The notes beneath the pieces were generated by a model. It saw only the letters and a program-made list of their open reading frames with translations, ran no database searches and was not told the origin of the DNA. DNA of 64,000 nucleotides. It comes from Escherichia coli. Its GTDB lineage: Bacteria; Pseudomonadota; Gammaproteobacteria; Enterobacterales; Enterobacteriaceae. The DNA lies in the NCBI RefSeq assembly GCF_024223415.1, contig NZ_CP100503.1; one strand, written 5' to 3'. Position numbers and translations under genes: made by a program. Shown piece after piece: positions 22,137 to 45,786 of the stretch (the first letter of the stretch is position 1; every line of letters starts with the position of its first letter).

Positions 22137-22153
22137 TTTGCTCTAATAAATTG
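22137..22153 (+). promoter_or_regulatory. C1-operator-like motif TTTGCTCTAATAAATTG (operator of immunity module i)
   Basis: Consensus match just after pacB stop. Confidence 0.5.
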
Positions 22154-22284
22154 TGTTTTTTGACTGCCGATGTTACATTGAACCTGACCTCTTGCGCCTT
22201 GAGGCTTTTTCGGTTTATGCTTATCAGGCACCTCATTAAAACGGGTGCCGGGATTGGCCTCCCGCTTAAGTCTAAGGCGATACA

Positions 22285-22305
22285 GACGCCGCTCGCGTCT
22301 TTTTT
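22285..22305 (+). terminator. Hairpin GACGC-loop-GCGTC followed by T6
   Basis: Stem-loop plus T-run in the leader of immunity module i. Confidence 0.45.
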
Positions 22306-22334
22306 GTATCGGCGTACACGCACACCTCTACAAT

Positions 22335-22410
22335 GGTGGGCTGTATGGGGCTACCTTCGGGTAGGCTGGTTACCTTGGACGCCAGTAAGGCCAACTCCGT
22401 ACAGTCCACC
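22335..22410 (+). ncRNA. c4: c4-like antisense repressor RNA, module i (about 76 nt)
   Basis: Shares scaffold GGTGGG...ATGGGG...TTCGG...CTGGTT-[b']-GCCAGT-[a']-C.CCGT...CCACC with the other two modules; carries CCTTGGAC and GGCCAA complementary to GTCTAAGG (22270, 22452) and ATTGGCC/ATTGGTC (22253, 22420). Confidence 0.55.
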
Positions 22411-22470
22411 GCCAGCAAGATTGGTCTCTTCTGCGGTGGTTACATACCAACGTCTAAGGAGGCTGCCAAT

Positions 22471-22692
22471 ATGGCTACTATCCCTACCCCAACTCATCCT
22501 GAATTTATCTGGCGCTTTTACTCCTGCCAAAAACGTCACTATCACTTCGTTATTGCACCAACAGAAGATGAGGCCCGCTCTCAGCTTCCTGACGCCCCAT
22601 GTATTTTCTCTGCCCGTTTTTCCACTGATTCACGCAATTCTCTCAGTTACTGGTGCCTCCCTGTTAACGCTTCTGCTCAGGAGGGACTATGA
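22471..22692 (+). CDS. icd: Icd-like protein (73 aa), translationally coupled to ant
   Basis: 73-codon ORF (MATIPTPTHPEFIWRFYSCQKRHYHF...) with ATGA overlap to ant; AGGAGG SD. The 119-aa track ORF 22333..22692 is an upstream extension across the RNA gene. Confidence 0.6.
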   Translation: MATIPTPTHPEFIWRFYSCQKRHYHFVIAPTEDEARSQLPDAPCIFSARFSTDSRNSLSYWCLPVNASAQEGL

Positions 22693-23804
22693 GAACGTCA
22701 TTAGTCACCCGTGAAGAGATGATCGAGGCAATTGAACAGCACACTGCCTGTATCAGTACCAGGGATATACCGGGCGTTATTGCCAACTACTTCATGATCA
22801 CCAAACAACTTTACCGGAGAAAGGACAAGAACGCGGTTCACCGCATTCTGCTAACCGATATCCGCGAATACCTGCTCGAACAGGGTCATCTGAATTACGC
22901 AACCGTCGCAGCCGAAACACGCAAGGAGGCACACAGAATGAAAGCAACTAACGTTAAATCAGAAAAAATTCATGCAACTTCAGTTCAGGAATCAGAGCTG
23001 GTGGTTGTTCAGAATCAGTCTGATGAAATTCCCGTTCTGGAATGGCTGGGAGTGCGTGTAGTGACAACCAAGATCCTTGCTAAGGGGTATGGGACCGATG
23101 CGGATAACATCAAGAAGAACTTTTCCCGTAATGCTGAACGTTTTTGTGAAGGCAAGCATTTCTATAAAGTTATTGGAGATGATTTGAACAATTTGCGGGT
23201 GACTTTAAGTAACTCACAAAATCCCATCTCTCCTAAAGCCCGTTCACTCATCCTCTGGACAGAACGCGGCGCTGCCCGTCACGCTAAAATGCTCGAAACC
23301 GATCAGGCATGGGCATTCTTTGAAAAACTGGAAGACAGCTACTTCCGGCAAAAAGAACAGCAACCGGTTGCAATCCCCCAAACATTACCAGAAGCCCTAC
23401 GCCTGGCTGCCGAACTGGCTGAACAAAAGCAGCTTCTGGAACAGAAAGCCCACCAGCTAAATCAGCAGCTGGTGGCCGCCGCTCCTAAGGTCGATTTTGC
23501 CGACCGGGTATCAGTAGCTAAAGGGATCCTGATTGGGAATTTTGCAAAGGTTGTTGGACTTAAGCAAAACGCGCTGTTTGCCTGGTTACGGGAGAACGGC
23601 ATCCTGATAGCGTCCGGTGGACGTAAAAATGTGCCGTTCCAGCAGTACATCAACGCGGGGTATTTCACGGTGAAAGAAGTGGTGCTGGATGATGAAGATG
23701 GCTACCAGATACGGTTGACGCCTCAATTAACGGGTAAAGGCCAGCAGTGGTTGACGCGTAAACTGCTCGATGCTGGCTTGTTAAAACCGGTGGCGGCTGA
23801 ATAA
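22689..23804 (+). CDS. ant: Antirepressor Ant-like protein, paralog i (371 aa; AntA/Bro-N-like central domain, conserved Ant C-terminal domain)
   Basis: Conserved N-terminal 85 aa and C-terminal about 150 aa shared with four other genes in the window; immI-type context. Confidence 0.65.
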   Translation: MRTSLVTREEMIEAIEQHTACISTRDIPGVIANYFMITKQLYRRKDKNAVHRILLTDIREYLLEQGHLNYATVAAETRKEAHRMKATNVKSEKIHATSVQESELVVVQNQSDEIPVLEWLGVRVVTTKILAKGYGTDADNIKKNFSRNAERFCEGKHFYKVIGDDLNNLRVTLSNSQNPISPKARSLILWTERGAARHAKMLETDQAWAFFEKLEDSYFRQKEQQPVAIPQTLPEALRLAAELAEQKQLLEQKAHQLNQQLVAAAPKVDFADRVSVAKGILIGNFAKVVGLKQNALFAWLRENGILIASGGRKNVPFQQYINAGYFTVKEVVLDDEDGYQIRLTPQLTGKGQQWLTRKLLDAGLLKPVAAE

Positions 23805-31068: not shown

Positions 31069-31118
31069 AGTTACGGCCTCACAAGTTGAATTAACAACCT
31101 GCTACCCGCTGTCAAACA

Positions 31119-31195
31119 GGTGGCAGGACGTGACAGGGTTGACAGACTGGCACTTGTGAAACCAGCAGGCCGAAGCCTCCCCATCACGCCCCACC
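31119..31195 (-). ncRNA. c4: c4-like antisense repressor RNA, module ii (about 77 nt)
   Basis: Same scaffold as module iii but a'/b' are CTGTCAA/CACAAGT, with matching targets TTGACAG/ACTTGTG. Confidence 0.6.
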
Positions 31196-31385
31196 ATAAT
31201 TCGGGCGTAACGCGGTTTTACGGACACAAAAATACCGCAATAACGGAGTGATGCGGTTGTCCGCACAAGTATTCAGGCTGTCAAACCCGGTCGCAGAATT
31301 TGCTACGACGCAGGAACTATAAGCCTGAACGACGGGAAGATCAATAGTCTGGCGTCCAATAGTAGTTTATTTGTTCCAATAAATC

Positions 31386-32769: not shown

Positions 32770-32959
32770 GATTTTTTAGGGCAAATAAACTACCATTGCG
32801 CACTGCCCTATTGATCTCCTTACCGTTCAGGCTTATATTCATGCCGTCGTAGCAAATTCTGCGACCGGGTTTAGCAGCCTGAATACTTACGCGGACAACC
32901 GCAGATATCCGATATTGCGGTATTTTCATGTCCGTATAACCGCGTTACGCCCGAATTAT

Positions 32960-33036
32960 GGTGGGGCGTGATGGGGAGGCTTCGGCCTGCTGGTTTCGTA
33001 AGTGCCAGTCTGCTAACCCCGTCACGTCCTGCCACC
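32960..33036 (+). ncRNA. c4: c4-like antisense repressor RNA, module iii (about 77 nt)
   Basis: Carries CGTAAGT (32997) and CTGCTAA (33010) complementary to ACTTACG (32885, 33069) and TTAGCAG (32871, 33039); the last overlaps the icd SD. Confidence 0.6.
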
Positions 33037-33086
33037 TGTTTAGCAGCGGGTCGCAGGTTGTTTTATCAACTTACGAGGCCGTAACT

Positions 33087-44971: not shown

Positions 44972-45153
44972 TACAATCGTTACGGGTGCTTGAGGCTATC
45001 TGCTTCAGGCATTACCCGAAAAGCAGATAGAAGAAAGCCCCAGATAACATTACGCGTCCTGCAAGACGCTTAACATTAATCTGAGGCCATCTCTATGCTT
45101 AGCATACGTAGATTAACCCTCTCCCCTTTTAAGGAGCAAGGAATTTTTTACTG

Positions 45154-45786
45154 CTATGCCGCATTTCCAATTATGGATTCAGCGACCAGAACAACCCCAT
45201 GCTTACTTCGATCTGGGTGTTCACTCCATATCTCGGATTCAGGAATACTTACCCCGTCATAGCAAACACGTTCGCCGTCAAACGGGTAATACTGAGCGGC
45301 ATCGGTGTCAAGGATAAACACTTTTAGCTCGGAAGAGCGACGGGCGATGTGTTGCCAAAGAGCTTTTCCACCTTCGTATTGCTCATTATCACTGAGCAAA
45401 ACAACACCAGCTTTTGAGGCTACGGTTTCGTAAACAAAAGTAGCTAAACCGACATCCCGGACGGTTCCATCAACCACGATACCTTCAATCTGGGCAACAT
45501 CGCTATCCTCCCAGAACTTCCTTACCAGTACGCCTTCAAGCTGCGGGCGACGTTGAAGTTCAAGAGTAGCGACAACCTTATGGCGCATATCACCATCGAT
45601 AATAGAAGGCGCAGCCTCTATTACAGCTGCAAATGGGGTTTTGGAATCCCATATAACCTGGTAAAGCACACCCTGGATGGTAACTCCGTCCAGGATCGAA
45701 AATCGACGAGCGACAGTACCCGGGGAGTACGACATTGGAATCACAGCCATTTTAGAGTCCCCCTTTAACAGTACAGGCACAAACAT
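45154..45786 (-). CDS. Hypothetical protein (210 aa; start probably internal Met)
   Basis: ORF; no motif recognised. Confidence 0.4.
   Translation of the reverse strand: MFVPVLLKGDSKMAVIPMSYSPGTVARRFSILDGVTIQGVLYQVIWDSKTPFAAVIEAAPSIIDGDMRHKVVATLELQRRPQLEGVLVRKFWEDSDVAQIEGIVVDGTVRDVGLATFVYETVASKAGVVLLSDNEQYEGGKALWQHIARRSSELKVFILDTDAAQYYPFDGERVCYDGVSIPESEIWSEHPDRSKHGVVLVAESIIGNAA

Follow-up and report, generated by a model that had tools for sequence, protein, structure and literature searches.

The window analysed here is a stretch of 64,000 nucleotides from a P1-like phage-plasmid of Escherichia coli (NZ_CP100503.1) that carries three C4 copies, in modules i, ii and iii. Module i (22137-23804) is a 1.7-kb insertion that fills the interval between pacB and c1; in P1 (reference annotation NC_005856) the pacB-c1 gap is only 24 nt and contains no operator. 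The features of module i are as follows:

22138-22152, plus strand: C1 repressor operator core TTGCTCTAATAAATT, an exact match; the full 17-mer spans about 22137-22153.
22151-22179, plus strand: putative C1-controlled promoter, -35 TTGTGT (22151-22156), 17-nt spacer, -10 TACATT (22174-22179).
22192-22221, plus strand: candidate PisrK-like promoter, -35 TTGCGC (22192-22197), 18-nt spacer, -10 TATGCT (22216-22221).
22228-22305, plus strand: IsrK-type leader RNA (Rfam RF01394, 60.8 bits against a gathering threshold of 50).
22254-22260, plus strand: element a1, TTGGCCT, at position -76, a perfect 7-nt complement of a' with no wobble.
22270-22277, plus strand: element b1, GTCTAAGG, at position -60, with 8-nt pairing to b' that includes one G-U.
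22284-22305, plus strand: intrinsic terminator of the leader, AGACGC-CGCTC-GCGTCT followed by T6, also present in the Rfam isrK alignment.
22335-22414, plus strand: C4-i antisense RNA, with a closing stem of 16-17 bp, two hairpins and the 3' tail GCCA.
22373-22381, plus strand: element b', CCTTGGACG, in the loop of hairpin 2.
22388-22394, plus strand: element a', AGGCCAA, single-stranded between hairpin 2 and the closing stem.
22421-22427, plus strand: element a2, TTGGTCT, with 7-nt pairing to a' that includes one G-U.
22451-22459, plus strand: element b2, CGTCTAAGG, with 9-nt pairing to b' that includes one G-U, overlapping the icd Shine-Dalgarno AGGAGG (22457-22462).
22471-22692, plus strand: icd-i, 73 aa (NCBIfam NF033153 phage_ICD_like, 49.8 bits against a cutoff of 25).
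22689-23804, plus strand: ant-i antirepressor, 371 aa, with ORF6N and KilAC domains.

Both RNAs of module i are already recognised by Rfam. The C4 model RF01695 matches 22329-22416 over its full length (model positions 1-87) with 75.9 bits against a gathering threshold of 45 (E 4.7e-13), which is the highest C4 bit score among the three copies in the window. The minimum free energy fold of C4-i (-41.8 kcal/mol) has the family architecture, with hairpin 1 formed by CUACC-UUCG-GGUAG, b' exposed in the loop of hairpin 2, and a' unpaired. A consensus structure of 34 sequences obtained with RNAalifold contains 27 pairs, 18 of them with compensatory double changes. The original prediction of a C4-like scaffold (GGTGGG..ATGGGG..TTCGG..CTGGTT..GCCAGT..CCGT..CCACC) was borne out at 22335-22410, and its proposed variable positions are homologous to those of modules ii and iii: they occupy the same columns in the Rfam and 34-sequence alignments and correspond to the b' loop and the a' single strand of P1.

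The individual recognition elements named in that prediction are present: CCTTGGAC starting at 22373, GGCCAA at 22389-22394, the same-sense copies of GTCTAAGG at 22270 and 22452 (the latter overlapping AGGAGG), ATTGGCC at 22253 and ATTGGTC at 22420. Their extents required some revision. The location of the a element was right, but its best register is 7 nt long and shifted by one base, and b', although it starts where proposed, extends to 9 nt against b2. One G-U wobble had been thought necessary for pairing, which applies to a2, b2 and b1 but not to a1:a'. Each of b1, b2 and a2 includes a G-U, which could make binding less strong than in P1; throughout the C4 family, b1 commonly contains such wobbles. 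The AGGAGG at b2 lies 9 nt ahead of the icd ATG, and the geometry of a1, b1, a2 and b2 is that of the annotated P1 sites.

The 3' end of C4-i had been likened to a tRNA acceptor stem followed by GCCA. The acceptor-like stem is real and GCCA is found at 22411-22414; of 34 diverse C4 RNAs, 33 carry an RCC motif after the closing stem, which in module i takes the form of the complete GCCA. Features compatible with RNase P are the sequence AU/GGUGGG, the first pair G22335-C22410 and the succeeding G-CCA, and the conserved AU/GG coincides with the RNase P site of P1. The cut is predicted to fall between U22334 and G22335. For the C4 RNAs of P1 and P7, RNase P cleavage at the GGW start is reported in a passage of PMC5320573 that cites Hartmann 1995.

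The Rfam isrK model begins at 22228. The leader consists of a 5' hairpin, a second hairpin (CGGGA-UUGGCC-UCCCG) with a1 in its loop, a single-stranded b1, and the intrinsic terminator, and its minimum free energy fold yields the same three hairpins. In the predicted minimum free energy structure of the module i precursor, a1 is paired with a' and b1 with b', both in cis. The terminator precedes C4, so C4 synthesis requires read-through of a good terminator. The c4-a1b1 leader model (Rfam RF03163) gave no match for module i, and it matched modules ii and iii with 56.8 and 54.6 bits, respectively. The order of isrK then C4 is also found in Gifsy-1, in TL-2011c, in RCS47 and in an E. coli chromosomal element.

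Residues 10-73 of icd-i are identical to those of the icd proteins of modules ii and iii, and the icd-i stop codon overlaps the ant-i start in the sequence ATGA (22689-22692). The ant-i protein matches Pfam ANT (PF03374, E 8.6e-31) and ORF6N (PF10543, E 1.1e-17), and shares 89% identity with the module iii Ant and 55% with P1 Ant1. At the other end of the cassette lies one of 13 C1 operator sites detected in the window with at most two mismatches, versus 0.14 expected. It has the same orientation as the operators before modules ii and iii, at a distance to C4 of -193 compared with about -200, and the operator core is present at -193 in 61 of 61 loci with the C4-i allele. The Oc4/Op51 operator of P1 is annotated at the equivalent place with the same geometry. 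By analogy with the P1 annotation, 22151-22179 would be a C1-controlled promoter, its -35 overlapping the operator like that of P1 P2c4/P51a. The PisrK-like promoter, a poor match to the consensus with a predicted start near G22228, aligns with TTGACA-18-TATATT of Gifsy-1 and TTGACT/TATATT of TL-2011c. A consensus promoter scan flagged neither of the two, and their proposal derives solely from the Gifsy-1 alignment and the P1 annotation. A candidate promoter between the terminator and C4 (TTGTAT ... TACAAT) was rejected; its spacer is 21 nt and its start would fall within C4.

Sequence similarity places the RNA front end of module i in the lambdoid IsrK-C4 type of Gifsy-1 and the Stx phages, a lineage different from that of modules ii and iii. 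This front end gives way at icd codon 10 to an icd-ant body almost identical to that of module iii. Identity with the paralogous modules jumps at approximately 22498: it is only about 65% with modules ii and iii in the RNA part, but 96-100% with module iii in the icd-ant body. An origin by duplication of module ii or iii was rejected, because lambdoid cassettes are closer (79-88%) to the RNA part than module iii is. The C4-i allele was found in 95 PLSDB plasmids, whose 253-nt front ends share at least 99% identity, as do those in 127 records of complete E. coli genomes.

A loose scaffold pattern gave at least 120 matches on viral contigs, and only part of the fetched loci had nhmmer C4 matches. 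The nhmmer screen of all fetched loci kept 189 C4 loci, comprising 39 natural a'/b' alleles that are related by descent and recombination and do not represent 39 independent events. A perfect 7-nt complement of the cognate a' is present on both sides of C4 in 37 of the 39 alleles (189 loci), whereas only 0.44% of 1378 cross-allele pairs give a non-cognate a' 7-nt matches on both sides. The cognate b' behaves like the cognate a', and a non-cognate b' reaches a score of at least 7 in 1.7% of 1466 cross-allele pairs. In each of the alleles, a1 and b1 change together with a' and b'. Given these low cross-allele rates and the Rfam C4 score, the pairings of module i are beyond chance. RNAduplex energies separated cognate from non-cognate combinations poorly, because the palindromic GGCC of a' gives about -8.8 kcal/mol with any GGCC, and contiguous-pairing counts were used instead. 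In the resulting cross table, C4-i matched none of the targets in modules ii and iii or in P1 and P7, and the module i recognition sequences match no other C4 copy of the plasmid. Because its a' and b' have no partner outside their own module, whether in the plasmid or in P1 and P7, the cassette would provide an immunity specificity of its own.

All sequence-level tests agree with the original prediction of a third module of the C4 type whose a'/b' specificity is distinct; its anatomy, fold, covariation and orthogonality are direct observations. The analysis confirms a third complete copy, in a P1-like phage-plasmid, of the known C4 antisense RNA switch, predicted to silence an antirepressor gene, and module i is very probably a complete, self-contained C4-type immunity cassette between pacB and c1.

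The ImmI system of P1 and P7, in which the C4 antisense RNA precedes icd and ant1/2, was reportedly described by Citron and Schuster in 1990. Module i shares with it the RNA fold, in which the hairpin-2 loop holds b' and a' is unpaired; the order a1-b1-C4-a2-b2-SD-icd-ant, with b2 over the Shine-Dalgarno; the translational coupling of icd and ant; a C1 operator about 195-200 nt upstream of C4; and the AU/GG start and RCC tail, which fit RNase P. It differs in its location between pacB and c1 rather than at the sim to kilA-repL position of P1 ImmI, where the P1 operon lies next to sim/kilA, and in its leader, which is of the IsrK type with a strong terminator and not of the c4-a1b1 (RF03163) type. 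The b' loop of module i is one nucleotide longer, the central domain of its Ant is ORF6N, and its a'/b' elements differ from both CTGTCAA/CACTAAC of P1 and CTGCTAA/CACAATC of P7. In phage P4, the CI RNA is also a small RNA that is processed by RNase P from a leader transcript and pairs with repeated complementary sites in its own operon, but it causes transcription termination, unlike the translation block of C4.

The isrK-orf45-anrP locus of Gifsy-1 and those of Stx phages such as TL-2011c have the Rfam isrK element directly followed by C4, a second leader hairpin whose loop holds a1, a terminator ahead of C4, and an aligned promoter, all as in module i. Gifsy-1 differs in having no icd, so that a2 and b2 lie directly on the anrP Shine-Dalgarno, in its a'/b' alleles, and in having no C1 operator. 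In Gifsy-1, experiments have proved that a1 pairs with a' and that the short leader RNA activates in trans (PMC4825925, Hershko-Shalev et al. 2016), and only there have Hfq binding and trans-activation of the downstream antirepressor by isrK been demonstrated (PMC4825925). Over-expression of IsrK increased anrP translation 139-fold, the compensatory mutant pairs were G28/C162 and G31/C159, and basal translation went up, not down, when a1 was mutated in cis (PMC4825925). We note that these two mutant pairs map exactly onto a1:a' base pairs. The published model names neither C4, a'/b' nor RNase P (PMC4825925). The RCS47-type module (FO818745), noted as an 'ant' insertion (PMC6906374), occupies the same pacB-c1 slot and shares the operator, the upstream promoter region, the isrK leader followed by C4, and an ant with 93% identity. 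It differs in b' (CCCTTTGACG or CCCTTTTGCG), in a' (AGTCTCAA or AGTTCCAA), in the C4 closing stem, and by a 21-nt insertion ahead of C4.

By analogy with P1 and Gifsy-1, module i would be expressed, processed by RNase P, repress its own antirepressor, and be countered by its leader as a competitor. Transcription would begin at the weak constitutive PisrK-like promoter, with a start near 22228, and without C1 probably also at the upstream promoter overlapped by the operator. The leader terminator would halt most transcripts, producing an IsrK-type RNA of approximately 78 nt that displays a1 and b1. Read-through transcripts would carry C4, and an RNase P cut at U22334/G22335 followed by 3' trimming near the GCCA tail would release free C4-i of about 77-80 nt. 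C4-i would then act in trans on the icd-ant mRNA from its own module, with the single-stranded a' binding a2 and the hairpin-loop b' binding b2, and the b':b2 pairing would mask the icd Shine-Dalgarno. Because ant is translationally coupled to icd, antirepressor synthesis would be blocked and C1 repression kept. The same a' and b' would also be bound by the a1/b1 leader, both in cis, as part of the precursor, and in trans, in the form of the short RNA; the leader would therefore compete for C4, control how much of it stays free, and be able to derepress ant. The leader may additionally be needed for C4 folding or maturation, as the Gifsy-1 cis mutations in a1 had an effect that a simple sponge model does not predict.

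We also considered that the IsrK-type leader might act chiefly in trans, as an Hfq-dependent sRNA targeting host mRNAs or other phage mRNAs, with C4-i alone as the immunity determinant. Rfam describes isrK as Hfq-binding, and IsrK expression in Salmonella has broad physiological effects through AntQ (PMC4825925). The Gifsy-1 effects, however, were traced to activation of anrP at the same locus through pairing at the a1:a' positions (PMC4825925). The covariation of a1 and b1 with a' and b' extends to every allele, and the data are explained without any other target; we regard this possibility as unlikely.

That module i is an inactive relic, with C4 unexpressed or not controlling icd-ant and the ant copy either silent or controlled only by C1 at the operator, is quite improbable. 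The C4-i scaffold is intact, with the top score in the window, all four target sites are retained, the icd and ant ORFs are intact, and the front end is conserved across the 95 plasmids. Variants of the slot with other a'/b' elements, such as RCS47, show matching changes in all four targets, which argues for continuing selection on pairing. A relic would fit the weakness of both promoters, the terminator between promoter and C4, the two further modules already on the plasmid, and the G-U wobbles at three of four target sites, although such wobbles in b1 are common in the family.

Finally, the stretch could encode an 'Ash family' protein instead of RNAs, starting from the C4 AUG (22333) or farther upstream, with the complementarities incidental. 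The ORF at 22333-22692 is open and in frame with icd, but no Shine-Dalgarno precedes 22333 and the ash frame crosses an intrinsic terminator. The ORF matches Pfam Phage_ASH (PF10554, E 2.8e-8) at model positions 49-107 only. In many genomes PGAP places an 'ash family protein' on isrK-C4, one of them a 342-aa CDS in L283, but in the closest plasmid it labels the ash feature an incomplete pseudogene. Of the 39 alleles, 22 keep the frame open beyond 70 codons, whereas 16, P1 included, run into a stop within 46 codons. An SPA-tagged 'orf45' of Gifsy-1 with the same AUG start was detected by western blot, but the IsrK authors found its nucleotide sequence conserved and its amino-acid sequence variable (PMC4825925). 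Protein coding does not explain the compensatory changes in 18 of 27 stem pairs, nor the covariation of the hypervariable a' and b' with sites 60-120 nt upstream and 5-40 nt downstream. This RNA-level covariation disfavours the Ash protein, which we consider highly improbable; 'ash family protein' in RefSeq and Pfam is likely a mis-annotation, and some coding role for the ORF from 22333 is conceivable.

For the C4 switch with its IsrK-type leader, we tentatively propose a wider reading, plausible but leaning slightly towards doubt. Every IsrK-type C4 module would be a three-part RNA switch, in which the terminated leader is an anti-antisense sponge for the C4 of its own read-through transcript, and terminator read-through sets the ratio of activator to repressor. 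P1-like plasmids would gather mutually orthogonal modules from a combinatorial pool of at least 39 a'/b' alleles to silence the antirepressors of more superinfecting relatives, Gifsy-1 IsrK/orf45 would be a C4 system, and the Pfam Ash family would represent translated RNA genes.

C4 specificity determines which related phages a P1-type prophage resists and which can induce it. The 39 a'/b' combinations with matching targets are a ready set of orthogonal RNA repressor-target pairs, and the IsrK link joins the C4 and IsrK literatures, which have been studied apart. The presence of a third orthogonal module, in a new slot and on about 100 sequenced plasmids that include resistance carriers, implies that the P1-like immunity repertoire is wider and more modular than P1 and P7 suggest.

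An Rfam search of the window at gathering thresholds identified three C4 antisense RNAs (RF01695). Those of modules ii and iii are each preceded by a c4-a1b1 motif (RF03163), whereas C4-i, the antisense RNA of the C4-icd-ant cassette designated module i, has an isrK RNA instead. The features are listed below; a' and b' are the variable recognition elements of C4, a1 and b1 their targets in the leader, and a2 and b2 their targets downstream.

Features of module i and the other C4 RNAs of the window
22138-22152, C1 operator core TTGCTCTAATAAATT, exact match directly after the pacB stop
22151-22179, second candidate promoter TTGTGT-17-TACATT, overlapping the C1 operator like P1 P2c4
22192-22221, putative leader promoter TTGCGC-18-TATGCT, from alignment with Gifsy-1 and TL-2011c, start near G22228
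22228-22305, isrK RNA (RF01394) upstream of C4-i, 60.8 bits
22254-22260, a1 TTGGCCT, complement of a'
22270-22277, b1 GTCTAAGG, pairs with b' with one G-U
22329-22416, plus strand, C4 antisense RNA of module i, 75.9 bits
22373-22381, b' CCTTGGACG
22388-22394, a' AGGCCAA, best a register 7 nt
22421-22427, a2 TTGGTCT, pairs with a' with one G-U
22451-22459, b2 CGTCTAAGG, pairs with b' with one G-U
22457-22462, Shine-Dalgarno AGGAGG of module i icd, overlapped by b2
22471, icd ATG
31116-31201, minus strand, C4 antisense RNA, 68.6 bits
32954-33039, plus strand, C4 antisense RNA, 70.8 bits

Every string quoted in the original prediction was found at its position in the window, and the single G-U wobble that it proposed occurs in a2, b1, and b2 alike, but the a register shifts to the 7-nt AGGCCAA and b' is the element tabulated here. 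The order a1, b1, C4, a2, b2, icd and its spacing are the same as for the annotated P1 sites. The ant-i product has ORF6N and KilAC domains. The window belongs to a P1-like E. coli phage-plasmid, and around module i a 1.8-kb stretch shares 99.9% identity with plasmids including NZ_CP122494.1 and 93% with phage RCS47.

The predicted minimum free energy (MFE) fold of C4-i (22335-22414, -41.8 kcal/mol) has the C4 family architecture, with a 16-bp closing stem, a hairpin 1 capped by UUCG, a hairpin 2 whose 10-nt loop contains b', an 8-nt single strand containing a', and an unpaired GCCA tail. We aligned 34 distinct C4 RNAs from P1, P7-like elements, Gifsy-1, Stx phages, RCS47-type plasmids, and IMG/VR contigs. 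Compensatory double changes occur in 18 of the 27 pairs of the consensus structure, and the hypervariable columns coincide exactly with the b' loop and the a' stretch. There, the a' and b' of module i share their columns with the elements of P1 and modules ii and iii, so that these positions are homologous, in keeping with the shared scaffold proposed from the sequence.

To gather C4 loci, viral contigs were scanned twice by DNA pattern and once with icd, and annotated records were added. An nhmmer profile on these loci gave at least 189 full-length C4 with flanks, at least 52 distinct cores, and at least 39 a'/b' alleles, which are not independent events because they are related by descent and recombination. 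For each allele, the longest contiguous antisense match was sought in 100 nt upstream and 60 nt downstream of C4. Among the matches listed, 37 of 39 alleles have a perfect 7-nt complement of the cognate a' on both sides of C4 at conserved distances, and the cognate b' complement spans 8-12 nt on both sides, its downstream copy extending into the Shine-Dalgarno. When C4 was compared with flanks of a different allele, 7-nt a matches on both sides were found in 0.44% of 1378 pairs, and b scores of at least 7 in 1.7% of 1466 pairs. This strong comparative evidence argues that the four-way a'/b' complementarity is under selection. An isrK-C4 cassette in the E. coli AR_0085 chromosome (locus L283, 2501-2689) lies inside an element encoding a TOPRIM/DUF927 primase and combines the module i a' (AAGGCCAAC) with a TL-2011c-type b', all four targets being changed to match. 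The two recognition elements thus reassort among phage-plasmids and elements of the chromosome.

Recognition elements of C4 RNAs
P1: b' CACTAAC, a' CTGTCAA
P7: b' CACAATC, a' CTGCTAA
Module ii: b' CACAAGT, a' CTGTCAA
Module iii: b' CGTAAGT, a' CTGCTAA
Module i: b' CCTTGGACG, a' AGGCCAA

In a cross table, the matches of C4-i to its own sites span 7-9 nt and include at most one G-U pair. With the leaders and targets of modules ii and iii, P1, and P7, its a' reaches at most 4-6 nt, and its b' at most a 7-nt stretch that includes two (module ii b1) or four (b2 sites) G-U pairs. These matches are consistent with the predicted third immunity specificity. Modules ii and iii (31116-31322, minus strand, and 32833-33039, plus strand) are arranged divergently; their b' elements are absent from P1 and P7, and their a' is P1-type or P7-type. 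Between C4-iii b' and module ii b2 a 10-nt pairing with four G-U is possible. Different alleles are combined in eight of ten fetched loci with two or three modules, and the other two, on one contig, are a tandem duplicate of allele i. On that IMG/VR contig (L177, 1020-2602, and L219) the two module i C4 copies are 1566 nt apart, a whole-cassette tandem duplication.

The pacB-c1 gap is 24 nt in P1, where it contains no C1 operator, and 1.7 kb in the window, where it is occupied by the module i cassette. The module i operator has the orientation of those of modules ii, iii, and P1 Op51, at a nearly equal distance to C4. The window contains 13 sites resembling TTGCTCTAATAAATT with at most two mismatches, against 0.14 expected, and five are exact; scattered examples lie at 10509, 25249, 42915, and 58365. 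Among the matches listed, all 61 loci with the module i allele have the operator at -193, and none of the 61 has a lambdoid context. In RCS47-type plasmids the same slot holds four further allele combinations. Homology of module i to lambdoid isrK-C4 cassettes starts at the isrK start (22228/22229), with 79% identity to Stx phages and 88.5% to a chromosomal element. At a sharp junction near 22498 (icd codon 10), DNA identity to module iii rises from ~65% upstream to 96-100% downstream, and residues 10-73 of Icd-i are identical to Icd-ii and Icd-iii. The operator, the lambdoid homology, and this identity jump indicate that, in sequence, module i is a three-part mosaic, in which the operator and promoter are P1-type, the IsrK-C4 front end is lambdoid-type, and the icd-ant body is again P1-type. 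The central part of ant-i (~23050-23250) diverges again from module iii. Venturini et al. described the pacB-c1 region as holding "two short hypothetical orfs and ... an antirepressor", as in RCS47, with the RNA unmentioned (PMC6906374). Of 72,556 PLSDB plasmids, 95 carry the front end at ≥99% identity, as do 127 records of complete E. coli genomes.

Both candidate promoters of module i are weak, and a consensus promoter scan flagged neither. The leader is predicted to form a 5' hairpin, a second hairpin whose loop displays a1, an unpaired stretch with b1, and a terminator, so C4-i would have to derive from read-through transcripts. C4 of P1 and P7 is reported to be processed by RNase P (PMC5320573, citing Hartmann 1995). 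The tRNA-acceptor-like end with GCCA noted in the original prediction is real, and three features are compatible with such processing: a conserved AU|GG at the 5' end, a first pair G22335-C22410 followed by G-CCA, and an RCC motif 3' of the stem, found in 33 of 34 C4 homologs. Pairing of C4-i with a2 and b2 would block the icd ribosome-binding site, and ant synthesis would be blocked too, because the icd stop and ant start overlap (ATGA).

Experimental data exist for the Gifsy-1 isrK locus (PMC4825925). If positions in its transcript are counted from the A of ACGCCAGC, the identity of every base mutated in that study is right. G28 and G31 lie within a1 (UUGGCGU, 26-32) and C159 and C162 within a' (ACGCCAA, 158-164), and the compensatory pairs tested, G28/C162 and G31/C159, are exact a1:a' base pairs. 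Rfam places C4 directly after isrK (minus strand, 1632-1830 of L125, which is NC_010392.1 32500-36000); 'orf45' begins at the AUGG conserved at the 5' end of C4, and a2 and b2 are located on the anrP Shine-Dalgarno. STnc1160, a processed RNA of ~80 nt from orf45 (PMC4825925), is taken as C4 because it comes from the region where Rfam calls C4. The IsrK-orf45-anrP locus of that study is a C4-type module. Our literature search found no paper giving a functional IsrK-C4 link, and C4 is unmentioned in the IsrK paper (PMC4825925) and in a 2025 review. Over-expression of short IsrK raised anrP translation 139-fold (PMC4825925), as expected of a leader that titrates C4. In the predicted MFE structure of the module i precursor, a1:a' and b1:b' are paired in cis, resembling 'structure A' of that study. 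Cis mutations in Gifsy-1 a1 raised basal translation (PMC4825925), a misfit with a pure sponge model, and we therefore put the chances that the module i leader acts as a C4 competitor at about even.

Module i is unlikely to be an inactive relic, since its scaffold, icd, and ant are intact, its four target sites match, and allele turnover in the same slot is fully compensated. That the isrK-C4 stretch instead encodes a protein is highly improbable: the ORF from the C4 AUG matches Pfam Phage_ASH (PF10554) and PGAP annotates an 'ash family protein', but early stops close the frame in 16 of the 39 alleles listed, the C4 AUG has no Shine-Dalgarno before it, the feature is flagged as a pseudogene in the closest plasmid, and covariation in C4 is of the RNA type. 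It may be that Phage_ASH represents conserved RNA genes that were translated conceptually. These RefSeq/PGAP annotations cover isrK-C4 at 22217-22447 of the window, at 1490-1720 of fetched locus L281, and at 2120-3148 of L283, where the chromosomal element has a 342-aa CDS. In module i, the ATG at the C4-i 5' end opens a 119-codon frame (22333-22692), continuous in frame into icd; the equivalent frame stays open beyond 70 codons in 22 of the 39 alleles listed.

Two other RNA matches were recorded. A sok antitoxin RNA (RF01794, 91.4 bits) on the plus strand at 44984-45158 of the window makes a hok/sok-type addiction module there likely. In phage TL-2011c (L124, 2523-2606), an sRNA-Xcc1 match (RF02221, 79.6 bits) is located immediately downstream of a Rha-family gene that isrK-C4 precedes; the sRNA-Xcc1 consensus, with a closing stem, two hairpins, and an ACCC tail, has a C4-like look.

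The finding is real, and its original interpretation holds for module i at the sequence level. The RNA family is known and already modelled, and the kind of system is not new; what is new in module i is its specificity and its genomic slot.
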